Positions 29,205 through 42,132 of a stretch of 53,713 bases of DNA are shown one piece after another (the first letter of the stretch is position 1; every line of letters starts with the position of its first letter). The notes under the pieces were generated by a model. It was given only the letters and a program-made list of their open reading frames with translations. It was not told the origin of the DNA and made no database searches. The translations under genes and the position numbers were made by a program. The stretch comes from Kiritimatiellia bacterium (GTDB taxonomy: Bacteria; Verrucomicrobiota; Kiritimatiellia; RFP12; UBA1067), in the NCBI GenBank assembly GCA_028684935.1, contig JAQUEX010000001.1, forward strand, positions 1 through 53,713, written 5' to 3'.

Positions 29205-30887
29205 TTACCGCTGCCGTTCCCGGAGCGCGATCAGCTCTTTCATGACAGTGGCCATTCCGCCGCTCCACGCGGCGGTTCCGAAGCCGTCGTGAAGCTGCCG
29301 GTACAACGTGAACAGCTCGGCGTAAACCGCCGCGTTCGCCGCAATCGGCCGGTAAACCCGCTCGCGCACGCGGCAAACCTTGGCCTGCGCCGTTTCGATA
29401 TCGGGGAACGCACCCGCCGCGACCGCGCCGAAGAGCGCCGCGCCCAACGCGCAGGTCTGGTCCGACGCCGCCACCGCCATCGGCATGTTCAGCACGTCGG
29501 CGTAGACTTGCATCAGGAACGGGCTCTTGACCGCCAAGCCGCCGCAGGTGATGACCTGTTCCACCGGCACGCCGTACGCGCGCACGCGGTCCACAATCAT
29601 GCGCGCCCCGAAGGCCGTGGCCTCCACGAGCGCGCGGTAAATCTCCGCCGCAGTCGTGTGCAGGGTCTGTCCGAGCAGCAGGCCGGAAAGCCGCACATCC
29701 GTCAGTACGCAGCGGTTGCCGTTATTCCAGTCAAGCGCCAGCAGCCCGCTCTCGCCCGGCTTGAACCCGGCGGCGGCCTGATCCAGCGCCACGAATTTCT
29801 CCCCCTGGGAGGCTCCGTAGGTGTCCGGCACCAGATGGTTCACGAACCAGAGGAAAATATCGCCCACCGCCGACTGTCCGGCTTCGATGCCGATGTAGCC
29901 GGGCATCACGGAGCCGTCCACGATGCCGCACACGCCGGGAATGTCTTGCAGCGGGCGGTCGTTTGGGGCGACCAAAAGGTCGCAGGTGCTGGTGCCGAGG
30001 ATCTTCGCCAGCTTGCCGGCGGCGCAGCCGGCGCCGACCGCGCCCATGTGGGCGTCGAACGCGCCGACCGCCACGGCGATGCCGGCGGGCAGCCCGAGCG
30101 TGTCCGCCCACCCGGCGCAAAGCCCGCCCGCCTTGACGTCGGCGGTATGGGCGGTCGTATAGAGGCGGTCGCGCAGGTCGGCCAGCGCGGGGTCCAGCGC
30201 CGCCAGAAACGCTTTGTCCGGCAGGCCGCCCCATGTTTCCGCGTACATCGCCTTGTGTCCGGCTGCGCAGACGCCGCGTTTGAGCGCGAGCGGATCCTCG
30301 ACGCCCGTGAGCAACGCCGGGATCCAGTCGCATAATTCGACAAAGCTGAACGCGGCTTCAAACACGCGCGGCGCCGCGCGCTTGAGATGCAGGATTTTCG
30401 CCCAGAACCATTCGGACGAGTAGGTGCCGCCGCACTTGGCGAGATACGCTGGGCGCAGGACGCGGGCCAACGCCGTGATCTCGGCCGCCTCGGCGTGGCT
30501 CGTATGGTCCTTCCAAAGCCAGGCCTGCGCATCGGGGTTGTCCTTGAATCCGGGACGCAGCGCCAGCGGCGTGCCGCAACGGTCCACAGGCATCGGCGTC
30601 GAGCCGGTCGTGTCGACCCCGATACCCACCACCGCGTCGGGCGAGAAGGCCGGATCGGCGACGCGCGCCTTTTTCAGGCCTTCGACAACGATCGCGATCA
30701 GGCCGTCGCGATAGTCGGCCGGATTCTGGCGCGCGACATTCGGGTCGCGCGGGTCGACGATCACTCCCTGTAGCCCCGAGGGGTAATTGTAGACGTGCGA
30801 GGCGACCTCCGCGCCGTTGTCGAGGTTGACGATCAGCGAGCGGCACGAGTTGGTGCCGTAGTCCAAACCGATTGCGTAACGGGTCAT
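29205..30887 (-). CDS. araB: ribulokinase
   Basis: 560 aa. The FGGY kinase N-terminus 'YAIGLDYGTNSCRSLIV' and overall AraB length and layout. Confidence 0.85.
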   Translation of the reverse strand: MTRYAIGLDYGTNSCRSLIVNLDNGAEVASHVYNYPSGLQGVIVDPRDPNVARQNPADYRDGLIAIVVEGLKKARVADPAFSPDAVVGIGVDTTGSTPMPVDRCGTPLALRPGFKDNPDAQAWLWKDHTSHAEAAEITALARVLRPAYLAKCGGTYSSEWFWAKILHLKRAAPRVFEAAFSFVELCDWIPALLTGVEDPLALKRGVCAAGHKAMYAETWGGLPDKAFLAALDPALADLRDRLYTTAHTADVKAGGLCAGWADTLGLPAGIAVAVGAFDAHMGAVGAGCAAGKLAKILGTSTCDLLVAPNDRPLQDIPGVCGIVDGSVMPGYIGIEAGQSAVGDIFLWFVNHLVPDTYGASQGEKFVALDQAAAGFKPGESGLLALDWNNGNRCVLTDVRLSGLLLGQTLHTTAAEIYRALVEATAFGARMIVDRVRAYGVPVEQVITCGGLAVKSPFLMQVYADVLNMPMAVAASDQTCALGAALFGAVAAGAFPDIETAQAKVCRVRERVYRPIAANAAVYAELFTLYRQLHDGFGTAAWSGGMATVMKELIALRERQR

Positions 30888-30923
30888 CTCCTCACTCCCT
30901 TCCTTTCGCCCCCCTGCCGCCGT

Positions 30924-33425
30924 TTACTCCGCCTTGATTCTGAGGATCGTGAGCGAATGCGCGGGAAGTGTCACGTGCGAAACCGCGCCCGGAATGTCAA
31001 GCGCGTCCTCTTTCGGCGCGATCTTGTGAGGCTCTTCCATCGTGTTCACATCATCCGGACGGCCGGCCAGCGTGATGCGCCGTGCCTTTTGCGCCTTCAC
31101 GTTGGCCCCCGCCAGACTGAGCGCGAGCGTCAACGGGGCGTTGTGCGGATTGACGCCCTTCACCACGATCTCGCCCGCCGTCCCGTCCCGGCCGGCCACG
31201 AGATAGGCGCGCGCCGCCTGCCCGTTCGGCAGCCGTTGATCGAAGAGCGGCTGGCCGTCGAGCCAGGCACGCACACGCTCGCCGTCAAGCTGGAGCTTGA
31301 TCGCGTACCAGCGCCCGGTCTCGATCGAACCGGGCTGGCGGACGACCGGATTCTGCCCGTTCTGCTCGATGCCGTGTTGCTTGTTGCCCCAGCCGCCGAG
31401 GTTCAGGTGAACCGTCTTGTCGCGCTGGTCGCGGACGCGGATGATGAAGCCCTCCTTGCCCGACAGTTTGCGGGCGTTGAGTTCAAGGGTGTAGTTGTCC
31501 CATGGCGCGCCCGCGATGAAGCTGGACACGGTCTCCCGCACCGTCTCGTCGGATTGGCGCAGCGCACCGTCCTTGACCGACCATGCGCCCTCCTTCGACT
31601 TCGACCAGCCCTTTGTTCCCGCCTTCGGGTCAAACGCATAGAGGGCCTCACCGCCGCGCGTGACGCGGATGTCCTTGAACTCGGCGGCCGTCTCCCACGT
31701 GTGCAGCCCGATCGTCCCCGCCGGCGGCAGCGGCGCGAGATTATCCGACACCTCCACGGGCAGCAAGACATCCGGCAGGTTGTTCATGAACAGCTTCTGC
31801 ACGTGGTATGAGGGCGTGCCGAAGGCGCGCGTGTTATCGAACCAGATGAGATCGATGTTCCACTGCGTGCGGCCGATCTTGTTGAAGAGCGGCGCGTACG
31901 CGGCCATGCGCACCACGTCGGAGTTGCGCTCGAAGCCGGTCATTGCCGCCGCTTCGCACAGCGCGGCAAGCAGGTTGTTCTTGCGGTCGCGCGTGTGGCA
32001 GGCATATTCGCCGACATAGACCTTGGGCCCATTGCGGTCATAGCGGTCATAGCGCGTGGCCTGAGCCAGGAACCATTCCGGAGGCTTGTAGAAATGTTCA
32101 TCGACCAGTTCCGCCTGCATCTCCGGCAGCCGGCGCCACGCCAGTTCGAACATCGGTCCCTCCGGCGCGGCGCCGGCGGAGGAGATGATCGCGATCTCGG
32201 GATGCTTGGCTTTGACCGCCTGTGCGATGATCGCGTAGCGGTCGAGGAAGGGCGTGTCCCAGTTTTCGTTGCCGATGCCGACGTACTTGAGATTGAACGG
32301 CGCGGGGTGGCCCATCTCGGCGCGCACGCGGCCCCACGGCGTGTCCGGCGCGCCGTTAGCGAATTCGATCAGGTCGAGCGCGTCACGGACTACCAGGTCG
32401 AGGCTGTCGAGCGGCAGGCACTCCAGCGGTTTGCGGAACTGGCAGGTCATACCCGCCGCCAAGATCGGCAGCGGCTCGGCACCGAGATCCTCGGCCATTT
32501 GAAAGTACTCGTAGTAACCCAGGCCGTGGCTCTGCCAATACCCCCAGCGGTTGTGGTTCAGCGCGCGGCGTTCCAGCGGTCCGACCGTGCGTTTCCAGTG
32601 GTAAAGCGTCTCGAAGTTATACCCTTCCACCACGCAGCCGCCGGGAAAGCGCAGCGTCGCGGGTTTCATCTCCGCCAGCATCTCCATCAGGTCTTTGCGG
32701 AGCCCGTTCTTGCGGCCCTTGTAGGTGTCTTGCGGGAAGAGTGAGACCAGATCGAGATCCACGGTTCCGTGCGCGTCGAGCAGCACCGCGAGCCGCGCGT
32801 TCGTCACTGTCGCGGTCGGCGCGAAGAGCGCCTCGTAACGTGCCCAAGGCGCAGGTGGCGGCGGGTCCAGCGGCGAGACGGCCTGTCCGTCTGGGCACGC
32901 TGTCTTCCAGGCCTCTTTCACGATGCGGAACGCGGCCAGCGGCTGCCGTTGTGCATCTTCCAGCCGCACGGTGAGCCCGCCCGCATAGCCGGCGTGACGG
33001 CGCGCGTAGAAGGAGAGCGCGTACGTTTTGCCCTGCTGCACCGCCATGCCGCCGAAACCGTCATTGGCCACGCCCGCGCCTTCTCCCGGCGCATAACACT
33101 CGACGCGCAGATACTGGAAGGTGTTGGGATGCACCGGATCGGCCCCTTGCAGCGAGATCCTCCCCATCGCCGCGCCGCGCCACTCTCGCGTCCATCCGTC
33201 CGGCTCCTGCGTGCGCCAGTCGAATCCCCGGTTCGCGATCAGTTCCGGATAGAGTCCGCCGTCGGCCGCATCATTGATGTCCTCGAAAAAGATGCCGTAG
33301 AGTGTCCGCGGGATCGCGTGACCCGGACGGTCCGCGCGCACGGTCACGGCCAGCGGCTCTTGCTGCGCACGGACTCCTGCTGCCGCAACCACAAACATAA
33401 CGAAGCCGATTCGCACCGTTCTCAT
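30924..33425 (-). CDS. secreted GH51 alpha-L-arabinofuranosidase with a C-terminal ConA-like/DUF1080-like module
   Basis: 'LRFPGGCVVEGYNF' and 'KYVGIGNENW' are GH51 catalytic-region motifs, followed by an extra lectin-like domain of about 200 aa. Start trimmed to the ATG at 33425 (MRTVRIGFVMFVVAAAG). Confidence 0.75.
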   Translation of the reverse strand: MRTVRIGFVMFVVAAAGVRAQQEPLAVTVRADRPGHAIPRTLYGIFFEDINDAADGGLYPELIANRGFDWRTQEPDGWTREWRGAAMGRISLQGADPVHPNTFQYLRVECYAPGEGAGVANDGFGGMAVQQGKTYALSFYARRHAGYAGGLTVRLEDAQRQPLAAFRIVKEAWKTACPDGQAVSPLDPPPPAPWARYEALFAPTATVTNARLAVLLDAHGTVDLDLVSLFPQDTYKGRKNGLRKDLMEMLAEMKPATLRFPGGCVVEGYNFETLYHWKRTVGPLERRALNHNRWGYWQSHGLGYYEYFQMAEDLGAEPLPILAAGMTCQFRKPLECLPLDSLDLVVRDALDLIEFANGAPDTPWGRVRAEMGHPAPFNLKYVGIGNENWDTPFLDRYAIIAQAVKAKHPEIAIISSAGAAPEGPMFELAWRRLPEMQAELVDEHFYKPPEWFLAQATRYDRYDRNGPKVYVGEYACHTRDRKNNLLAALCEAAAMTGFERNSDVVRMAAYAPLFNKIGRTQWNIDLIWFDNTRAFGTPSYHVQKLFMNNLPDVLLPVEVSDNLAPLPPAGTIGLHTWETAAEFKDIRVTRGGEALYAFDPKAGTKGWSKSKEGAWSVKDGALRQSDETVRETVSSFIAGAPWDNYTLELNARKLSGKEGFIIRVRDQRDKTVHLNLGGWGNKQHGIEQNGQNPVVRQPGSIETGRWYAIKLQLDGERVRAWLDGQPLFDQRLPNGQAARAYLVAGRDGTAGEIVVKGVNPHNAPLTLALSLAGANVKAQKARRITLAGRPDDVNTMEEPHKIAPKEDALDIPGAVSHVTLPAHSLTILRIKAE

Positions 33426-33440
33426 TCTATGCCTCCCTCC

Positions 33441-33496
33441 GTTGCCGATTGCCCATTGCCCATTGCCCATTGCCCATTACCTACGGCCCATTGCCC
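33441..33496. repeat. heptanucleotide tandem repeat (ATTGCCC), 4 perfect units within about 8 units
   Basis: The units read GTTGCCG ATTGCCC x4 ATTACCT ACGGCCC ATTGCCC. They fill the gap between the SSS transporter stop (33498) and the GH51 start (33425). Confidence 0.85.
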
Positions 33497-33497
33497 C

Positions 33498-35222
33498 TCA
33501 CCGCAACCACGTCCAGAAATACGCATAGGCGGTGAGCACCAGGCCCACCACGACGCACGACGCGATCACATCCACCCGATTCCAGCTCGCCCGGTTTTCG
33601 CGGCGGTACGCCGTGTCGAGCGTGCTGAAGCAAAGCCCGCTGATCGCGGCGGGGTCGGGCGCGGGCGCGGTCAGCGAAGCCGCCACCACCACCGCCACGC
33701 TGACGGCCAGCAACAGTCCCGAAAAATAAAAGTCCTGGAACGTCGCGATCCGCGTCAACAACGCCGCAGGATCACCCGTCCGGCAGAGCGCGTTGACGGT
33801 GAGTTTGGACATGCCGATCACGAAGCCCGCCGAAAGGCCCCAGACCGCGCCGCGCAGATTGCAGCGCTTCCAGCACAGGCCGAGCAGAAAGACCGCGACG
33901 ATCGGCGGCGCGAGAAAGCTCTGCACCGATTGAATGTACTGGTACAGGCCGCCGCCGGAAACCGCTTTCATGATCGGCAGCCAGACCAGGCCCAACGTCG
34001 TCATCACGACCGTGGTCAACCGCCCGACGTGCACCAGCCACTTCTCCGAAACGCCGACATGCAGCTTCTTGTAGACGTCGACCGTGAAGAGCGTCGCCAC
34101 CGAGTTGAAGAGGCTCGCGAGCGAACTCATCAGCGCGGCCACAAGCCCCGCCACGACCAGGCCGCGGAAACCGGCCGGCAGCAGCGCGGTCACCAGCGTC
34201 GGGAAAACTTTATCGCCATCGACGGCCCCCGCCGAGTCGAGTGGAATCTGAATGATGCCGTGCTGGTGCAGGGCATATCCCAGCATGCCGGGTATCAGGA
34301 AGATAAAAACCGGCGTGAGCTTGAGAAAACCGCCCCACAGTGCGCCGCGGCGGGCGTGTGTCAGGTTGCGCGCCGAAAGCGTGCGCTGGATAATGAACTG
34401 ATCCGTGCACCAATACCAGACACCGACCGTCACCGATGCGACCACCACGCCCAGCCACGGCAGCGTCGGATGCGAAAGCGGGTGCCAGAGCGAGAAGGCG
34501 TCAACCACGGCGGGGGAGTCTTTGAGCGTCGCCTTCAGCACCCCCCACCCGTCCAGCACGCCCCCTTGCGGGAGCGTGCCCCCCAGTTTGGTGAGCGCGA
34601 AAAATGTCACGGAGAGCGAGCCCGTCAGAATGATGCCGGTCTGCACGAGGTCGGTATAGACCACCGCCAGCAGCCCCCCGAACGACGCGTAAACGCCGGC
34701 CAGCGTCACCGTCGTGAACGCCCCGATCCAGAACGAGCTGACCGTATGGCCCGCGATGTTCAGCGACAGCTCAGGCAACATCACCTCGAAGAAGAGCGCG
34801 CCGGCGAAGACCGTCACCGAGATCTTGGTCAGCACGTACGCGGCCAGCGACACGAGCGAGAGAATCCAGCGCGCGCGCGCGCCGAAGCGCCGCTCCAAAA
34901 ACTCCGGCATGGTCTGCACGCCGGACGTGTAGTAGAAGGGCAGGAAGACCCAGGCCATCAGCACCAGCACCCAAGCATGAAACTCCCAGTGCGCCATGCT
35001 GAGCCCGGTCCGCGCGCCCTGCCCCGCCAGACCGATCACGTGCTCCGAACCGATGTTCGCAGCGAAAATCGACGCGCCGATCGCCAGCCAGCCCACGCTG
35101 CGTCCGCCGAGGAAGAAATCCTCGGATGTGTCCTGCCTGCGCCGGGTCAAGACCACGACGGCCGCCAGCACGGCAAAGTAACCCAGAATCACAAGCCAAT
35201 CCAACGGAGCCATGATGGTCAT
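33498..35222 (-). CDS. sodium:solute symporter (SSS/SGLT family)
   Basis: 'FFLGGRSVGWLAIGASIFAANIGSEHVIGLAGQG' is an SSS-family signature. The protein is polytopic, 574 aa. Confidence 0.8.
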   Translation of the reverse strand: MTIMAPLDWLVILGYFAVLAAVVVLTRRRQDTSEDFFLGGRSVGWLAIGASIFAANIGSEHVIGLAGQGARTGLSMAHWEFHAWVLVLMAWVFLPFYYTSGVQTMPEFLERRFGARARWILSLVSLAAYVLTKISVTVFAGALFFEVMLPELSLNIAGHTVSSFWIGAFTTVTLAGVYASFGGLLAVVYTDLVQTGIILTGSLSVTFFALTKLGGTLPQGGVLDGWGVLKATLKDSPAVVDAFSLWHPLSHPTLPWLGVVVASVTVGVWYWCTDQFIIQRTLSARNLTHARRGALWGGFLKLTPVFIFLIPGMLGYALHQHGIIQIPLDSAGAVDGDKVFPTLVTALLPAGFRGLVVAGLVAALMSSLASLFNSVATLFTVDVYKKLHVGVSEKWLVHVGRLTTVVMTTLGLVWLPIMKAVSGGGLYQYIQSVQSFLAPPIVAVFLLGLCWKRCNLRGAVWGLSAGFVIGMSKLTVNALCRTGDPAALLTRIATFQDFYFSGLLLAVSVAVVVAASLTAPAPDPAAISGLCFSTLDTAYRRENRASWNRVDVIASCVVVGLVLTAYAYFWTWLR

Positions 35223-35436
35223 AAGGTGCTCTTCCCCTTGGTGAGATTCATTTACGGGGACACTTTAACGCCAGACCGTCAGACGTCTCAATTGCATTTC
35301 CTGCAAACCCGATTGTAATTATGGCACTCCGCGATGATTTCGTGCGCGGCGTCCGAGCCTCCGCGGGCCGCGCCGTAGCCGCTCTTTTTGAACGTGTCGC
35401 AATAGACCAGCCAGCGATCGAAGTGTAGGACTAAGC

Positions 35437-35561
35437 GTAAACGATGAAGTGTTTGGCCGCCTGATCCAACGGCTTTTTCTGGCAAAACTGAATCGCACCT
35501 GCGGGGTGGGCGGGGTGGCTAATCGCACGCTTGACCTCACACTTAACACTTAGTCGTTTAC
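35437..35561. promoter_or_regulatory. 17-bp inverted repeat pair (15/17) plus direct repeats in the promoter region of the arabinose operon
   Basis: GTAAACGATGAAGTGTT (35437-35453) pairs with the reverse complement of AACACTTAGTCGTTTAC (35545-35561). AATCGCAC occurs twice (35491, 35521). GGGGTGG GC GGGGTGG lies in between. The region has low GC for this window. Confidence 0.35.
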
Positions 35562-35577
35562 ACGTAATCGGATACAC

Positions 35578-36759
35578 TTACCGGAAATGGCGGTGCCGGT
35601 AGGCGGCGGGCGGCAGACCGAACTCGCCGCAAAAGAGGCGGTTGAAGTACTGCGGGGAGGAGAAGCCCGCGAGCCGGGCGACCTCTGAGGCAGGGTAGTC
35701 GGTTTCCGACAGAAGCCGGCAGGCCTCGCGCATGCGCAATCGCGCGATCTCTTGATGGACCGTATGGCCGATCGCGTGGACAAACGCCCGTTCCACTTGC
35801 GTATGCGAACGGCCCACATGCCGGATCACCTCTTCCGCGTTGACGCCTGCAGGGATCTCTTTGCGGATGAAGCGCAACGCATCGGCCAGCCACTGCGGCT
35901 CGACGGGGTCGGTCGCAGTCGAGGCGCGCTCCACGATGCGCGAAGGCGCGATCAGCGCGCGCCGTACCGCGCGGCCCGCGCGCGTCAGCCGCTCATGCAG
36001 CATCGCGGCGCCGGTCCAGCCGATCTGATGCGCATCCGGATCGACGCTCGTCAGCATGGGATACGCGAACCCGCAGAGAATGCGGTCATTGTCCACGCCC
36101 ATCACCGCCACATCGCGCGGAACATCCAGCCCGAGTTCTTTGCAGACCGAGATCACCTGATAGGCGCGGATGTCGTGACAGCAGAGGATCGCAGTCGGCA
36201 AGGGCAGCGTCTTCAGCCAGCGCGCCAGACGCCTGCTGTCCGGCGGGTCGCCGTATGCCTCCGCCTGCAGGATCAGCTTGCCGAGGAAGTCCGGCTTGAA
36301 GCGGGTCGCTTCATAGATCGAACACGCGAACCCTGCCTGTTCGGCCGTCTCTTTGAACGCCGCGCCGCGCAGATTGGAGAAGGGCGCGGAGTGGTAGCCG
36401 CAGAAGGCGAAATGGCGGAAGCGGCGCTCGATGAACCATGCGGCGGCCATCCGTCCGATCGCCCCGTGATCCGCGTCGACCGTCGCGATCCGGGGATACT
36501 CGCGCCAGCGGTAGAGGTCCACCACCGGGACGCCCAGTTTAGACAACGCGCCGGCCATCTCGTCATCCGGAATGCGCGCGATCACGCCGTCCACTTTGCC
36601 CGCGATCCCGGCGATGTCTTTCTTCCACGACTCGCCGCCGCCTTTGAACATCCAGTTCCCGTTGCTCTGCGCAAAATCGGCAATCCCCTCGCAGAGCCCC
36701 CTGCCGTACCCGCGCGAGGTCTCGACAAACACAGCCACCCTGTAGGATTGCTGCGTCAT
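35578..36759 (-). CDS. XylR-type regulator (LacI-like sugar-binding fold plus C-terminal AraC-type HTH)
   Basis: N-terminus 'YRVAVFVETSRGYGRGLCEGIADFA'; C-terminus 'EACRLLSETDYPASEVARLAGFSSPQYFNRLFCGEFGLPPAAYR'. The ORF-track start at 36762 is GTG; the ATG at 36759 abuts/overlaps the stop of the upstream gene. Confidence 0.75.
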   Translation of the reverse strand: MTQQSYRVAVFVETSRGYGRGLCEGIADFAQSNGNWMFKGGGESWKKDIAGIAGKVDGVIARIPDDEMAGALSKLGVPVVDLYRWREYPRIATVDADHGAIGRMAAAWFIERRFRHFAFCGYHSAPFSNLRGAAFKETAEQAGFACSIYEATRFKPDFLGKLILQAEAYGDPPDSRRLARWLKTLPLPTAILCCHDIRAYQVISVCKELGLDVPRDVAVMGVDNDRILCGFAYPMLTSVDPDAHQIGWTGAAMLHERLTRAGRAVRRALIAPSRIVERASTATDPVEPQWLADALRFIRKEIPAGVNAEEVIRHVGRSHTQVERAFVHAIGHTVHQEIARLRMREACRLLSETDYPASEVARLAGFSSPQYFNRLFCGEFGLPPAAYRHRHFR

Positions 36760-38042
36760 CACCCCTGCTTGTCAACGTGGAACACGCGCCGCGCCTTGCC
36801 GTCGCTGCGGGGCAGCGTGCCGGGCTTGAAGACGTCGCCTTTGGGACTGAACCCGAGCCGCTCCTTCAACTGCTTCTCGACCATGTAACCCGTCACGCCC
36901 TCCTGCGCCTCGACGTTGATGCGCACGTCGGTCACGCCGTGGTCGTTCTCCAGGATGATTTGGTATTCGGGCAGCACGCCGGGAATCTCCATCAAGGCCT
37001 GCTCCACCTGTTTCGGGAAGAAGTTCACGCCCTTGACGATCAGCATGTCGTCGCAGCGCCCCACGATACGGTCGATGCGCAGGCTGGTGCGGCCGCAGGC
37101 GCAGCGCTCGCGGCTCACCACGCGCGTCAGATCGCGCGTGCGGTAACGGATCACGGGGATCGCCTCGCGCGTCAGCGACGTGAAGATCACCTCGCCCACC
37201 GCGCCGTCCGGCAGCGGCGCGCCGGTCACGGGGTCCACGATCTCGGTGAGGTACTGATCCTCCCACACGTGGATGCCGCAGCGCGCCTCGCAATCCATGC
37301 CGGTCGTGCCCACGCCGCCGGTCTCGGTCATGCCGTAGATATCGAACGCCTTGATGCCGAGGCGCGCCTCGACCCGGTTGCGCATCTCGTCGGAGAACGA
37401 CTCCGCGCCGAAGATGCCGATCTTGAGGTCGGGCAGTTCCCAGCCCTTCTCGTCGAGCATCTCGATGATCCGCGCCGAATACGAGACCACCGCGCCCATG
37501 CCCTTGACCTTGAAATCGCGCATCAGCATGATCTGCCGCGCGGTGTTGCCGGAACTGGCCGGCACGGTGAAGAGCCCCGCCCGCCGCGCGCCGTGGTAAA
37601 AGCCGAAGCCGCCGTTGAAGAGCCCGAAGGTCGGCATGATCTGAATCACGTCGCCGGGCTGCAGGCCGGCCATGATCTGGCAGCGCGCCATGCACTCCGC
37701 CCACTGCGCCAGATCCGCCTCGGTATAGGCCATCACCACCGGCGTGCCGGTCGAGCCGGAACTCATGTGCATCTCGCGGATCGACCCGCGCGGCATGCAG
37801 AGCATGTTGAGCGGATACTGGTCGCGGAAATCATCCTTGGTCAGGAATGGCAGCTCCTGAATATCCTCAAGCTCGCGGATGTCCCCCGGCTCGACACTGA
37901 CCTCGGCCAGCTTACGACGGTAGAACTCGTTGTTCGCCCACACATGCTTGACCGTCCACTGGAGGCCCTTCAACTGCACCGCCGCCAGCTCGTCGCGGCT
38001 CAGGGTCTCCGCGCGCTCGTTCCAATACCGGAGTCTGTTCAT
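36759..38042 (-). CDS. phenylacetate--CoA ligase family adenylate-forming enzyme (PaaK-like)
   Basis: 'LPFLTKDDFRDQYPLNMLCMP...MHMSSGSTGTPVVMAYT' is a PaaK/F390-synthetase signature. The ORF-track start at 38048 is TTG; the first ATG is at 38042. Confidence 0.8.
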   Translation of the reverse strand: MNRLRYWNERAETLSRDELAAVQLKGLQWTVKHVWANNEFYRRKLAEVSVEPGDIRELEDIQELPFLTKDDFRDQYPLNMLCMPRGSIREMHMSSGSTGTPVVMAYTEADLAQWAECMARCQIMAGLQPGDVIQIMPTFGLFNGGFGFYHGARRAGLFTVPASSGNTARQIMLMRDFKVKGMGAVVSYSARIIEMLDEKGWELPDLKIGIFGAESFSDEMRNRVEARLGIKAFDIYGMTETGGVGTTGMDCEARCGIHVWEDQYLTEIVDPVTGAPLPDGAVGEVIFTSLTREAIPVIRYRTRDLTRVVSRERCACGRTSLRIDRIVGRCDDMLIVKGVNFFPKQVEQALMEIPGVLPEYQIILENDHGVTDVRINVEAQEGVTGYMVEKQLKERLGFSPKGDVFKPGTLPRSDGKARRVFHVDKQG

Positions 38043-38145
38043 GCTCAATCCTCGGATCCTGCCGGCTGTGCCGGCCTCTGCGTGTTACGATGAATAGAAA
38101 CCACTCTAGCGTTTTGCCCCCACCTCCGGCAACCTCAATCTACAC

Positions 38146-38163
38146 TCCATGGCCTGCCGTGGA
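38146..38163. repeat. REP-like imperfect palindrome TCCATGGCCTGCCGTGGA just downstream of the RAYT-DprA ORF
   Basis: Eight of nine positions pair, counting one G:T. It shares the GCCGTGG half-site with the palindromes at 38379-38400 and 39111-39276. Confidence 0.45.
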
Positions 38164-38179
38164 GATATCGACGACGCGG

Positions 38180-39301
38180 TCACAGGTAGACGATCTGCTT
38201 GTCCGGGTCGGCCTCGTGGAGGATACAGGCAAGCATACCGTCTGGATTCAGGTGACCGACTACCGCACGGTCGCAGTGCGCGAGCACGTACTGGTTACAC
38301 CAGGCAGCGCGGCGGGCACTGGGCGCCTCAACAGCGGTCTCGAAGGGAGATAGCAATAACAACCGGCCCTCTTCAATAGCAACACGGCATGCCGTGTTGC
38401 CCTGGAGGATGTCGAGGCCAGCGGGCACCACCCAAATCATGGGGCGTTTGTGGGTCAGACCGGCTCGGAACACGGCGCGCTCCATAGGCGAGAGGAAGCC
38501 GGACATGACCGCCTCACCAGACTTGAGCGGCAAACTGCCATGTAAAGAGGCCTCACCACGCGAAGCCAGAAACCCCACCTTGGGCATATTCAAAAGCGCC
38601 TTATTGCCCAGGCATATAGGCTCGACACCTTGCGCGACGACCGCGTAATTCTCGGGGTTGTCGCGGATGTACGCGCGGATGTTGGCGCGGGCTGCCTCAT
38701 CACGCGCCCGGACTTCGTAGAAACGGCTTTGCCATACGCTTTGGCCCAGAGCCTTCGACACAGCGGCCTTGTATGACCGAACGATGGTCGGCACCGAACC
38801 TGCCACCGGCTTGCCAAACGCTTCACGGCGTGCCGTGTAGCCTCTGATGTCCCAGTCTGCGGTCGTGAGTTGAAGAAGACCATGCACATGGTTGGGCATG
38901 ATGACATACTCGTCCACGACGGCGCGCGGGAAATGCGCCGGGATTTCGCGCAAGAAGGCGTCAGCGTGCCGGCCCGCGTCGTTCAGGTGCATTCGCCCGT
39001 TGACGATGGTCCCGAACACCGACCGCATGTTCTGCGTGCAAAGCGTCAGGAAATACCAGCCCGGACTGGTAAAGTCCCAGCCCTGCATTCTCAGATGCTT
39101 CTTCTGTGGAGCCACGGCATGCCGCAAGGGTGTCGATGGCGCCACGGCATGCCGCAAGGGTGTCGATGGCGCCACGGCATGCCGCAAGGGTGTCGATGGC
39201 GCCACGGCATGCCGCAAGGGTGTCGATGGCGCCACGGCATGCCGCAAGGGTGTCGATGGCGCCACGGCATGCCGTGGTGTTATGGATGACGAGTCTCTCA
39301 T
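38180..39301 (-). CDS. fusion protein: N-terminal decapeptide repeats + RAYT/IS200-like Y1 HUH transposase domain + DprA-like Rossmann domain
   Basis: The ATG at 39301 overlaps the uvrA stop (ATGA). 'VIMPNHVHGLLQL' is the HUH motif and 'VWQSRFYEVRARDE' holds the catalytic Tyr. The C-terminal 'GNKALLNMPKVGFLASRG...SGFLSPMERAVFRAGL...IWVVPAGLD...GRLLLLSPF...RRAAWCNQYVLAHCDRAVVGHLNPDG' parallels the DprA core motifs. The first ~200 aa of the 573-aa track ORF lie out of frame over uvrA and were discarded. An alternative internal start is the ATG at 39088. Confidence 0.65.
   Translation of the reverse strand: MRDSSSITPRHAVAPSTPLRHAVAPSTPLRHAVAPSTPLRHAVAPSTPLRHAVAPSTPLRHAVAPQKKHLRMQGWDFTSPGWYFLTLCTQNMRSVFGTIVNGRMHLNDAGRHADAFLREIPAHFPRAVVDEYVIMPNHVHGLLQLTTADWDIRGYTARREAFGKPVAGSVPTIVRSYKAAVSKALGQSVWQSRFYEVRARDEAARANIRAYIRDNPENYAVVAQGVEPICLGNKALLNMPKVGFLASRGEASLHGSLPLKSGEAVMSGFLSPMERAVFRAGLTHKRPMIWVVPAGLDILQGNTACRVAIEEGRLLLLSPFETAVEAPSARRAAWCNQYVLAHCDRAVVGHLNPDGMLACILHEADPDKQIVYL
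39111..39274. repeat. 30-bp tandem repeat, 5 perfect copies plus a partial sixth, each containing the palindrome CGGCATGCCG
   Basis: GCCACGGCATGCCGCAAGGGTGTCGATGGC repeats at 39111, 39141, 39171, 39201 and 39231. The copy at 39261 starts identically and completes a perfect 16-bp palindrome, CCACGGCATGCCGTGG (39262-39277). In frame on the minus strand the array encodes (RHAVAPSTPL)x5. Confidence 0.95.
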
Positions 39302-42132
39302 GTTCCGAGCACGGCCCGCAGGAAGCGGCCGGTGTGCGAGTCGGGGCAGGCGGCGACCGCCTCGGGCGTGCCGGTGACGACCAGCCGCCCGCCCTCGTCG
39401 CCGCCGCCGGGGCCAAGGTCGATGACGACATCGGCGCACTTGATGATGTCGAGGTTGTGCTCGATCACCACGACGGTGTTGCCGGACTCGCGCAGGCGCA
39501 GCAGCAGGTCGAGCAGCTTGTGCACGTCCGCGAAGTGCAGGCCAGTGGTCGGCTCGTCCAGCAGGTAGAGCGTCTTGCCGGTCGCGCGCTTGGACAGCTC
39601 GGCCGACAGCTTGATGCGCTGCGCCTCGCCGCCCGACAGCGTGGTCGAGGACTGGCCGAGATGCACGTAGCCGAGGCCGACCTCCGAGAGCGTGCGCAGC
39701 TTGTTGGCGATCTGCGGCACCGGCGCGAAGAACTCCAGCGCGTCCTCCACCGTCAGGTCCAGCACCTCGGCGATCGTCTTGCCGCCGTACCGGATCTCGA
39801 GCGTCTCTTTGTTGTAGCGCAGGCCGCCGCACTGTTCGCACGGCACGTAGATGTCCGGCAGGAAGTGCATCTCCAGACAGCGCATGCCGTCGCCCTTGCA
39901 CACCTCGCAGCGCCCGCCCTTGACGTTGAAGCTGAAGCGCCCCGGCCCGTAGCCGCGCACCTTCGCGGCGGGCGTGGCCGCGAACAATTCGCGGATCGGC
40001 GTGAAGGCGCCGGTATAGGTGACGGGATTGCTGCGCGGCGTGCGCCCGATCGGGCTCTGGTCGATCTCGATGACCTTGTCGAGCAGTTCGATGCCGGTGA
40101 TTTTCTTAAAAGCGCCGGGCCGCTCCTTGGAGCCGTAGAAGTGGCGGAACAGATGGTTCTTGAGGATGTCGCTCACCAGCGTGGACTTGCCCGAGCCGGA
40201 CACGCCGGTCACGCAGACCAGACAGCCGAGCGGGATCTGGACATCGATGTTCTTGAGGTTGTTTTCGGAAGCACCCGTGATTTTAAGGCGCGCCTTGCCC
40301 GGTTTGACGCGCGCCGCGGGCACCTCGATGCGCGTCCGCCCCGACAGATAGGCCGCCGTCTGCGAACGCCCGCACGCCAGCAGCCCCGCCAGCGCGCCCT
40401 GATACACCACTTCGCCGCCCTGGCGCCCGGCGCCGGGCCCCATGTCCACGATGTAGTCCGCCGAGCGGATCATCTCTTCGTCATGCTCGACGATCACCAC
40501 GGTGTTGCCGCGCCGCTGGAGCTGGTGCAGCATGTCGATCAGCCGCTCGTTGTCGCGCGGGTGCAGGCCGATGGTCGGCTCGTCCAGCACATAGAGCACG
40601 CCGACCAGACCGGAGCCGATCTGCGTCGCCAGTCGGATGCGCTGCATCTCGCCGCCCGAGAGGGTCGAACTTTCGCGGTCGAGCGAGAGGTAATCGAGCC
40701 CCACGTCGTGCAGAAACTTCAGGCGCCGGCGGATCTCTTTCAGCACCTCTGCCACGGCCGCCGCATCGGCGGGGGGCAGCGCGAGCGCGTCGAAAAAGGC
40801 CACGCCCTGCTTGACCGTCATGGCCATGACCGCCACGATCGAACGCCCCGCCACGGTGCAGGCGCGCGCCTCCGGCCGCAGCCGCGCGCCGCGGCAGTCA
40901 GGGCAGAGCTGCCGGCTCATGTACTGCCGCAGCTTCTCGCGCACCTCGTCGAACTCCGACTCGCTGTAACGCCGCGTCAGGCTCGGCAGCACGCCTTCAT
41001 AGGGCTTCTCGGTCTTGCGCCACGCGCCGCGCATCCAGAAGCGCAACGTGACCGGCTCGTCGCCGGAGCCGTGCAGCAGCACCTGGCGGAACGCCTCCGG
41101 CAGTTCGCTGTAGGGCGTGTCCATGTCGATCCCGTATGCCGCGGCCACCGCCTTGAGCAGGTGCTTGTAGTACACCACCATGCGGAAGCCGCCGTGCCGC
41201 CAGGCGTGGATCGCGCCCTCGGCCAACGACAGCGATTTGTCCGGCACCACGAGGTCCTCGTCAAAGACCAACTGCGCGCCGAGGCCCGCGCAGGTCGGGC
41301 AGGCGCCGAACGGGCTGTTGAAGGAGAACGCGCGCGGCTTCAGCTCTTCAAAACTGAGCGCGCAGTCCGGGCAGGCGTTCTTTTCCGAAAAGAGTTCTTC
41401 GCGCGCGTCGCCCTCCCCGGGCATGCTCTGCACGCGGACCAGGCCCTCGCCCTGCTTGAGCGCCAGTTCGACCGAATCGGTCAGGCGCCGCCGCACACCC
41501 TCCCCGACGACCAGCCGGTCCACGACCGCCTCGAGGGTGTGCGCTTTGTTTTTGTCGAGGCGCGGCACATCCTCGAGCGCCAGCATCTCGCCGTCCACGC
41601 GCACGCGCACAAATCCCTGGCGGCGGACGGATTCAAACACCTCTTCATGGCGACCTTTGCGGCCGCGTACCAGCGGCGCGAGCACCACCAGTCGGGTGCC
41701 GGCCGGCTGCGCCAGCAGATGATCGACGATCTGCTCCGCGCTCTGCCGCTGCACCGGCTTGCCGCAGCTCGGGCAGTGCGCGCGGCCGACGCTGCCGTAG
41801 AGCAGGCGCAGGTAGTCGTGAATCTCGGTCACGGTCGCCACGATCGAGCGCGGATTCCCGCCCGAGGTGCGCTGCTCGATCGAGATCGCGGGCGAGAGCC
41901 CTTCGATGTGGTCGACCTCCGGCTTCTGCATCTGGTCGAGAAACTGCCGCGCGTAGGCGGAGAGGCTCTCGACATAGCGCCGCTGGCCTTCGGCGTAGAG
42001 GGTGTCGAACGCGAGCGACGACTTGCCGGAGCCGCTCAGGCCGGTCACCACGGTCAGCGAATCTCGCGGGATACGCACATCCACGTTTTTCAGGTTGTGC
42101 TGCCGCGCGCCAGAGATGATGATGTCAGACAT
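39298..42132 (-). CDS. uvrA: excinuclease ABC subunit A
   Basis: '[53 protein letters not shown]' is a canonical UvrA N-terminus, 944 aa, with two ABC modules. Start trimmed to the ATG at 42132, because the track ORF extension overlaps dsbD. Confidence 0.9.

Follow-up and report, generated by a model that had tools for sequence, protein, structure and literature searches.

We analysed a 53,713-nt stretch of a Kiritimatiellia bacterium genome (contig JAQUEX010000001.1, assembly GCA_028684935.1, positions 1 to 53,713 of the forward strand; hereafter, the window), in which a gene directly following uvrA on the minus strand encodes an unusual two-domain protein. Its N-terminal part is a Y1 HUH nuclease of the type found in transposases associated with repetitive extragenic palindromes (REPs), that is, REP-associated tyrosine transposases (RAYTs), and its C-terminal part is a DprA-like domain. 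REP units are located in the gene and at its edge. The features of the locus, in window coordinates, are the following.

38180..39301, minus strand: RAYT-DprA-like open reading frame (ORF), 373 codons plus stop, likely start ATG at 39301-39299.
38636..39088, minus strand: Y1 HUH nuclease domain, residues ~72-222, TnpA-REP subclass 2.4 type.
38882..38890, minus strand: HUH motif H138-V139-H140, invariant in the 20- and 41-sequence alignments.
38669..38671, minus strand: predicted catalytic Tyr211 (YIRDNP), with Y211, N215 and P216 invariant; class-2 signature Y---NP.
38183..38626, minus strand: DprA-like (SLOG/DNA_processg_A-type) Rossmann domain, residues 226-373 (148 aa), assigned from Foldseek, the PsyrA match, transitive PF02481 homology and motifs.
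38566-38558 and 38302-38294, minus strand: A-S-R and W-C-N, respectively, motifs of the DprA-like domain placed by motif comparison.
39107..39277, minus strand: in-frame REP array in the N-terminal leader, 30-nt unit in 5.6 copies with six CGGCATGCCG cores.
38824..38837, no strand: degenerate REP core CACGGCACGCCGTG (as read on the coding strand), encoding TARR in frame, located in the loop that links the HUH strand to the following helix.
38379..38400, no strand: 22-nt perfect palindrome GCAACACGGCATGCCGTGTTGC, encoding NTACRV at a helix start in the DprA-like domain.
38146..38163, no strand: degenerate REP unit, 17 nt past the stop codon, right boundary of the present/absent segment.
39298..42132, minus strand: uvrA, 944 aa, NCBIfam UvrA equivalog NF001503 (1452 bits against a cut-off of 1147).
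36759..38048, minus strand: downstream neighbour, a PaaK-like phenylacetate-CoA ligase gene (paaK), NCBIfam TIGR02155 5.8e-125, below its cut-off.

Reading of the sequence confirmed the frame proposed in the initial annotation: the 373-codon ORF opens at an ATGA overlap, formed by the uvrA stop TGA (39300-39298) and the ATG of the fusion gene (39301-39299), and ends with a stop codon at 38182-38180. The start must lie upstream of the Met of 'MQGW', because distant homologues conserve the residues L-P-N-R-Q-S-I-R before it and some of them lack this Met. For the same reasons, and because the overlapping ATG and its leader recur, the Met in question (M72, 39088) was rejected as the true start. 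An ATG overlapping the upstream stop codon was found behind uvrA (the window and locus L087), behind hmaA (L007, L008, L009, L093, and L212), and in L011, the upstream gene of which we take to be HsdS-like from its recognisable C-terminal sequence. In five loci the centre of the first REP lies 32 nt from the ATG, with similar leader peptides among them, and the leader pattern M..S.S(I/L)(T/A)PRHAV is conserved across contexts. In-frame GTG and TTG codons within the array may be alternative internal starts. Since the start codon overlaps the stop of uvrA, the fusion gene is probably co-transcribed and translationally coupled with it. The GC content of the fusion gene is 61% versus 65-68% in its neighbours, and a search for a second copy in the window found none.

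The initial annotation had assigned the N-terminal domain to the RAYT-type Y1 family, and this assignment is supported by both profile and structure comparisons. The domain matched NCBIfam REP_Tyr_transpos (E 1.8e-12, 47.4 bits, under the cut-off of 80) and, weakly, Pfam Y1_Tnp (17.2 against a cut-off of 23). In an AlphaFold model of the fusion protein (mean pLDDT 81.8), Foldseek aligned the Y1 domain with E. coli TnpA-REP 4er8 (E 3.5e-6, root-mean-square deviation 3.0 over 141 columns) and also with the IS608/ISDra2 TnpA; 4er8 was the top PDB match of the sequence profile as well. The catalytic residues are intact. The HUH motif had been recognised correctly from the sequence (MPNHVHG); it corresponds to H138-V139-H140, and H138 and H140 do not vary among the homologues. 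The catalytic tyrosine, by contrast, had been misplaced: the Tyr of RFYEVR (WQSRFYEVR) is part of a conserved W motif, 'WQSRFYEVRARDE', aligned to WQPRFWEHAIRN of E. coli TnpA-REP, and the predicted catalytic residue is Y211 of YIRDNP. According to the published classification, the motifs of subclass 2.4 are NH[IFV]H, WQ, and YIxNNP, and the class-2 Tyr motif is Y---NP (PMC6006769). The window protein has N137-H138-V139-H140 and W190-Q191, and its Y211-I-R-D-N-P216 agrees with YIxNNP at five of six positions, Asp replacing the first Asn. The domain thus fits subclass 2.4.

For the C-terminal 153 aa, direct scans against Pfam and NCBIfam gave no match, and the whole protein did not match PF02481 either; structure prediction and a transitive profile search were therefore needed. 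In a separate model of the C-terminal domain (pTM 0.78), the top eight Foldseek matches were solely ShosA and DprA (TMq 0.55-0.65, probability 1.0). The family profile retrieved DprA 3uqz as its second match in the PDB (E 0.017), and PADLOC PsyrA matched the domain at 3.5e-5. A search of the C-terminal profile against 1.84 billion representative proteins reached stand-alone proteins of 150-160 aa at E 1e-15 to 1e-21. These relatives themselves match PF02481, one of them above the gathering threshold (P0382, 34.3 bits vs 29.6), and through such intermediates the fused domain corresponds to about positions 33-173 of the 212-position profile. Rossmann domains of DprA and ShosA bind single-stranded DNA (ssDNA), and DprA loads RecA. 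Two ssDNA-binding motifs have been defined for the H. pylori DprA (PMC3950713). The first of them (G-S/T/A-R) reads A246-S247-R248 here, with Gly changed to Ala and with S247 and R248 invariant, and aligns to GSR of 3uqz. The SAM and C-terminal winged-helix domains are absent from the fusion protein, which retains the truncated Rossmann core only. On the predicted fold and the transitive profile homology, the domain is DprA-like, as had been proposed for residues ~225-373 from a comparison of motifs, and is not a DprA orthologue.

The nearest relatives of the fused domain form a stand-alone 'mini-DprA' family (P0380, P0382, P0397, P0405, P0416, and P0423; 150-165 aa), and the W-C-N motif is also present in P0380. 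In another protein, P0485 (439 aa), a DprA-like domain is fused to a radical SAM domain.

The two-domain architecture is not peculiar to the window. A homologue search covering 5.8 billion proteins gave 770 matches, at least 120 of which are full length with both domains (50-95% identity). An assembly chimaera of two genes, which the initial annotation had considered as a source of error, was ruled out by these full-length homologues. The search with the C-terminal profile yielded 661 matches, all apparently the same fusion or its fragments. The fusion is conserved in about 700 proteins from metagenome-assembled genomes of Kiritimatiellia, Lentisphaeria, and Verrucomicrobia; the named sources are Kiritimatiellia, Lentisphaeria, Victivallales, and Verrucomicrobiota, and the source annotations read 'REP element-mobilizing transposase RayT' or hypothetical protein. 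Among GTDB species representatives, 11 two-domain loci were found, and many more loci, in other phyla, have the N-terminal domain only. The fusion probably arose in a lineage within Kiritimatiellia, Lentisphaeria, and Verrucomicrobia. The window protein comprises 373 aa (302 from M72), and the 148-aa extra domain is kept across the family.

The second distinctive property of the locus is its palindromes. The 53.7-kb window contains seven CGGCATGCCG cores, all within 38385-39274, six of them in the array and one at 38385-38394; the mean in shuffled sequences was 0.41, and none of 100 shuffles reached seven. This agrees with the earlier observation that the palindrome family is restricted to this locus within the window. 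All the copies named then were located as well, at 38379-38400 as a perfect palindrome centred on the core at 38385-38394, and at 38146-38163 and 38824-37 as degenerate ones. The six tandem copies described for the 5' end hold as six cores; as repeat units they amount to 5.6, since Tandem Repeats Finder delimited 39107-39274 as 30 nt x 5.6 copies with 99% match. The first unit of the array contains the full palindrome CCACGGCATGCCGTGG (39262-39277) with the 5' flank TCATCCATA. The consensus REP unit consists of CATCCATA, three to four variable nucleotides, and then a CCA CGGCATGCCG TGG stem; the copies share the 5' flank CATCCATA, and their outer stems vary between copies and yet remain complementary. 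In ssDNA folding, the 22-nt palindrome reached -10.5 kcal/mol (z -3.6) and the array -47 kcal/mol (z -4.5). A search of the array against Rfam gave only sub-threshold chance matches.

Comparison with relatives showed that the layout of the REPs is conserved. In the close clade, cores occupy four conserved positions: the leader, the post-HUH loop, the beginning of a helix in the DprA-like domain, and a site ~30-40 nt downstream of the stop codon. Ten close-clade loci contain 35 cores per 12.2 kb at the gene versus 3 per 168.5 kb of flanking DNA. The loop that holds the 38824-38837 core has a pLDDT of ~51 and corresponds to the beta3:alphaC insertion of subclass 2.4. Every two-domain homologue examined has a lineage-specific palindrome in this loop; in the more distant ones these are different perfect palindromes of 20-32 nt, sometimes with another in the C-terminal domain. 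The stems covary. Around the 'TACR' stretch of the C-terminal domain, 68 of the 82 homologue sites have flanking residues whose codons permit reverse complementarity; in 2000 shuffles the mean was 26.8 and the highest value 39. The common flanking residue pairs are D/V, N/V, L/E, and I/D. Single-domain relatives belonging to Chloroflexi, Cyanobacteria, Bacteroidota, Nitrospira, and other groups were also inspected: 33 of 41 have a perfect palindrome at +218 to +269 nt, frequently GTAGGGGCACGGCATGCCGTGCCCCTAC, with the same CACGGCATGCCGTG core as in the window. Additional copies lie on the flanks of the gene, and GTAG...CTAC feet are present in the REPs of these relatives. The intragenic palindromes noted in the initial annotation are thus real, and they are also an already published hallmark of subclass 2.4 (PMC6006769).

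Several further observations concern the same repeats. In-frame tandem expansions derived from REPs were seen within the DprA-like domain at L017:8677-8740 (18-nt spacing, beside a run of N) and in P0061, P0063 ('ACREGMEE' three times), and P0082, and some homologues have 'SITACRDATE' inserts in another loop. A sequence that combines the core of the window palindrome with a GTAG-footed 'double-foot' REP, GTAGGGCCACGGCATGCCGTGGCCCTAC, occurs on the unrelated metagenome contigs L102, L121, L164, L198, L202 (two copies), and L208; the fetched stretches contain no homologue of the fusion gene.

Close relatives of the window differ in the presence of the gene, and the breakpoints fall inside REPs. 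For this comparison paaK, which lies outside the element and has homologues of 96-98% identity, served as a synteny anchor. In L218-L220 the order is gyrA-uvrA-(140 nt)-paaK, without the fusion gene, and PaaK is 96% identical to that of the window. Alignment of the window with L218 gave two pieces that overlap on one solo hybrid REP, the left half of which continues the window REP at 39277-39262 and the right half that at 38163-38146. The ~1.1-kb fusion gene is therefore bounded by directly repeated REP units. Array copy number is polymorphic too: the window has six cores versus two in the 95%-identical L087 and L088, which indicates a recent in-frame expansion in the translated leader. The 30-nt unit is present five times in L212 and twice in L009, and no array was detected by tandem-repeat searches of L001 and L004; thus, the array is not universal. 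In addition, the window allele is a mosaic relative to L087, with ~15% difference in the Y1 part (38654-39080; 66 mismatches in ~430 nt) versus ~1.3% in the DprA-like part and downstream flank (38040-38650). This pattern suggests, from the alignment, that recombination may have replaced the nuclease domain. Decayed, truncated, and internally deleted copies occur as well: P0193 (187 aa) joins MPNH straight to the DprA-like domain, and P0172 (223 aa) is without the loop and helix after the HUH motif. Both fit recombination between internal repeats.

The gene is found in diverse genomic settings. Among the 15 two-domain loci screened, adjacency to uvrA was confined to one lineage, the window and its 95% relative (L087, L088); the other homologue loci showed no linkage to uvrA or paaK, and their genes follow hmaA, hsdS, an MmeI fragment, gmk, and others. 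In seven loci the gene stands directly after hmaA (L004, L007, L008, L009, L089, L093, and L212), usually with a start/stop overlap. The product of this upstream gene is a 1200-aa HTH-SNF2-NOV_C helicase (PADLOC HmaA, E 3e-153), and several of these copies have HmaB or DUF499, kinase, Schlafen-like, and CBASS genes in their vicinity. Type I restriction-modification (R-M) settings were seen in L016 (Methylase_S upstream) and L215 (between hsdS and hsdM). In L217 (region L217:6456-8035) the start of the homologue P0108 coincides with the stop codon of an ORF of 181 aa that has MmeI_N only and may be what remains of a type IIL restriction-modification gene. Housekeeping settings account for about half of the loci (uvrA, gmk, an aminoacyl-tRNA synthetase, ilvD/dnaE, a hydrogenase).

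Within the DUF1156/HmaB methyltransferase ORF of L004 (L004:10869-15014), at residues ~330-520 of the product, there is another RAYT-type Y1 gene, in frame and distinct from the fusion gene. It has the motifs …RLPHWTQPGTAFFVTF…MPNHVHALV…YIMNNP and is flanked by hairpins of its own, GGCAA[GC]CGggaCG[GC]TTGCC, which encode GNRDGCPTL. The arrangement resembles the in-frame insertion of an entire REPtron into a defence gene.

Taken together, the data are best accounted for by a REPtron whose enzyme, of the known subclass 2.4, has gained a DprA-like domain; the nuclease would act on the hairpins of its own cassette, and the added domain would bind ssDNA or bring in recombination proteins. We regard this reading as probable, with room for doubt. 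Under it, the Y1 domain would recognise a REP unit folded as a hairpin on ssDNA and would cut and rejoin beside the hairpin by means of an HUH-bound metal and Tyr211. Such hairpin-specific activity is proposed by analogy with E. coli TnpA-REP, which reportedly binds and cleaves REP hairpins on ssDNA (PMC3479197, PMC8266576). The DprA-like domain would hold the single strand and, by analogy with DprA and ShosA, may bring in RecA or another recombination protein. The enzyme is proposed to act mostly in cis, so that REP units would pile up in and around its own gene and be kept only where the frame is preserved: in the leader (30 nt x 5.6), in the post-HUH loop, at the helix start of the DprA-like domain, and immediately beyond the stop codon. 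Because directly repeated REP units bound the gene, the whole cassette could be lost or gained by REP-to-REP exchange. Thus, two elements of the initial annotation are retained, the REPtron-like unit and the DprA-like module resembling those that bind ssDNA and load RecA, whereas the link to repair is poorly supported.

Several points weigh against this explanation. The second DprA motif (F/L/Y-x-x-R-N/D) reads A-A-W334-C335-N336, with an invariant Cys in place of Arg and the Asn kept; ssDNA binding by the domain is therefore not assured. In a scan confined to the window and not extended to the whole genome, the remaining ~52.6 kb contain no member of the REP family; dispersal is not visible there, and classical genome-wide spreading of REPs is accordingly not evident within these limits. 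A metagenome scan for CCACGGCATGCCGTGG adds little information on dispersal, because among at least 120 loci listed only two have the fusion gene and one more resembles a neighbouring copy; the remaining listed loci comprise a further REP family, with a GTAGGG foot, as well as unrelated terminators and coding matches. The REP units also lack the canonical 5' GT[AG]G foot and read CATCCATAnnnnCCACGGCATGCCGTGG, GTGG occurring only as the 3' end of the palindrome. The solo REP of L218 fits a deletion and a REP-targeted insertion or pre-insertion site alike. Finally, defence systems surround about half of the homologue loci, which could mean a host function and not a cis-acting cassette.

The last point leads to the main rival of the REPtron reading, a role in host defence, which we consider unlikely. 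The protein would then be a functional component or an embedded module of anti-phage systems such as Hma and type I R-M, and the copy behind uvrA would be a displaced instance; one possibility is the detection or cleavage of ssDNA hairpins formed by invading replicons, the DprA-like domain serving, as in ShosA and PsyrA, as an ssDNA sensor or an antitoxin-like module. The recurrent position directly behind hmaA, the copies in type I R-M loci and behind the MmeI_N fragment, and the best matches of the C-terminal domain, which are the defence proteins ShosA and PsyrA, all point in this direction, and genes embedded in Hma are often defence genes (bioRxiv 10.1101/2024.01.29.577857). However, about half of the loci have housekeeping contexts, and no conserved partner gene except hmaA was seen. 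Mobile elements also gather in defence islands, and ~3% of the genes embedded in Hma are mobility-associated (bioRxiv 10.1101/2024.01.29.577857). The other RAYT within hmaB of L004, with its own flanking REPs, looks like invasion rather than function.

A more active role is conceivable, although we give it little credence: a hairpin-guided recombination module, in which the Y1 domain would nick at REPs and the DprA-like domain would load RecA or a strand-exchange factor. Its programmed exchange, deletion, and insertion of REP-bounded segments, from its own domains to Hma or type I R-M genes, would reshape defence islands.

It is likewise improbable that the palindromes are mainly regulatory, serving as mRNA hairpins or as dimer-binding operators for translation, read-through, or transcript stability through this protein or the HTH of a neighbour. 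The hairpins of IS200 block read-through and hide the ribosome-binding site, and the hairpins described here are found at the translation start, within the ORF, and shortly after the stop codon, with stems that covary. Di Nocera et al. argued that many REPs are RNA elements (PMC3733652). On the other hand, copy-number changes, tandem expansions, the REP-bounded loss or gain of the gene, and mosaic alleles indicate activity at the DNA level, and the catalytic residues, which a pure binding role would not need, are invariant. The perfect loop-less palindromes are identical on both strands and therefore favour neither the RNA nor the DNA reading.

The idea of the initial annotation, a domesticated ssDNA-processing enzyme expressed from the uvrA operon and working with UvrA in repair, is very improbable: the ATGA overlap is real, site prediction gave neither a promoter-like nor a terminator-like element between uvrA and the fusion gene, the final codon of uvrA differs among three relatives (ACA, GCA, or GTA) and always retains the A of the ATG, and REPs have been reported within DNA-repair genes, both uvrA genes of Opitutus terrae included (PMC3733652), but the adjacency is limited to the lineage described above, L218-L220 have uvrA-REP-paaK without the gene, and neither uvrB, uvrC, nor any other repair gene is linked at any locus. 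The position of the fusion gene by uvrA is probably incidental and not the sign of a functional partnership.

The surroundings of the gene include two other features. A 24-nt segment with a small inverted repeat (CAGAGGCCGGCACAGCCGGCAGGA) lies between the fusion gene and paaK (38057-38080); a similar form is present in L218, and the segment is missing from L087 and L088. Downstream of paaK, the region 29205-36762 is presumably an arabinose-type utilisation cluster, as recognised from translations, with genes that we take to encode a ribulokinase-like protein, a GH51-like arabinofuranosidase, a sodium:solute symporter, and an AraC/XylR-type regulator.

Part of what is described here was already known, namely the intragenic REPs of RAYT genes and the REPs 'decorating' repair genes, including Verrucomicrobial uvrA (PMC3733652). 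Literature searches on fusions of RAYT or IS200 transposases with DprA or SLOG domains found nothing relevant, and the survey that defined subclass 2.4 never mentions DprA (PMC6006769); the DprA-like fusion is apparently undescribed, in line with the initial annotation, which had not recognised the combination. Nor did the literature searched yield REPs located in such a tail or in a translated leader, a recurring location after hmaA, or the solo-REP empty site. The locus bears on two matters under discussion, what RAYTs do for their hosts and how REPs spread (PMC6006769). A conserved fusion of RAYT and DprA types offers a concrete, testable idea of nucleases working on ssDNA with recombination mediators, in a compact natural system with the enzyme and its substrates within 1.2 kb. 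In addition, the locus provides direct evidence of REP-bounded gene gain or loss between close relatives, and the recurrent start/stop-overlapping position behind the Hma helicase gene links REPtrons to the dynamics of defence islands.

Comparison with known systems placed the element within the RAYTs and set it apart in several respects. The TnpA of IS200/IS605 shares the Y1 HUH fold, and both kinds of element have subterminal hairpins of one strand on either side of the gene in direct orientation; however, the IS200/IS605 motif is Y---Q, whereas here it is Y---NP, with no tnpB and no multiple identical copies. The window has one copy, the sole two-copy genome has divergent paralogues, and the empty site keeps one hairpin. 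E. coli TnpA-REP (YafM, 4er8) is similar in the fold and in the HUH and Y---NP catalytic motifs, but belongs to subclass 2.2, is a single domain of 165 aa without intragenic REPs, and has REPs dispersed in hundreds of copies. The C-terminal domain resembles DprA, ShosA, and PsyrA in the fold, and at the first ssDNA-binding motif it reads A-S-R, with only the Ser and Arg as in GSR of 3uqz; it differs in being truncated, without SAM or winged-helix domains, in having W-C-N, and in lacking a direct Pfam match. Unlike ShosA and PsyrA, it has no toxin partner such as ShosT or PsyrT nearby. In overall plan a precedent is TnpA-Y1 of subclass 2.1 ('TIRYT'), in which a RAYT-type Y1 core is followed by a C-terminal nucleic-acid-binding domain (Bac_DnaA_C or helix-turn-helix, HTH) thought to serve targeting (PMC6006769). 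The added domain in that subclass is an HTH that binds double-stranded DNA, and flanking REPs are absent, whereas the fold added here is of an ssDNA-binding type and REPs are abundant.

The strongest likeness is to subclass 2.4, which equals Bertels group 4, has no tail domain, and has a median length of 194 aa (PMC6006769). Its 'remarkable and unique feature' is the in-frame insertion of REPs within the tnpA-REP gene, in the variable beta3:alphaC insertion (Quentin et al. 2018, PMC6006769). The window family shares with it the NHVH/WQ/YIRDNP motifs, the in-frame REPs at this very insertion, the flanking REPs, and the low copy number per genome, and its N-terminal domain is 33-48% identical to single-domain members of many phyla that have the CACGGCATGCCGTG core. 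It differs in the added 148-aa DprA-like domain, in REPs with the 5' flank CATCCATA instead of the GTAG foot, in extra in-frame REPs in the leader and the added domain, in REPs that appear local, and in scores under the NCBIfam and Pfam cut-offs. Even if its function is merely selfish, the element would still be a tidy extension of this known subclass.

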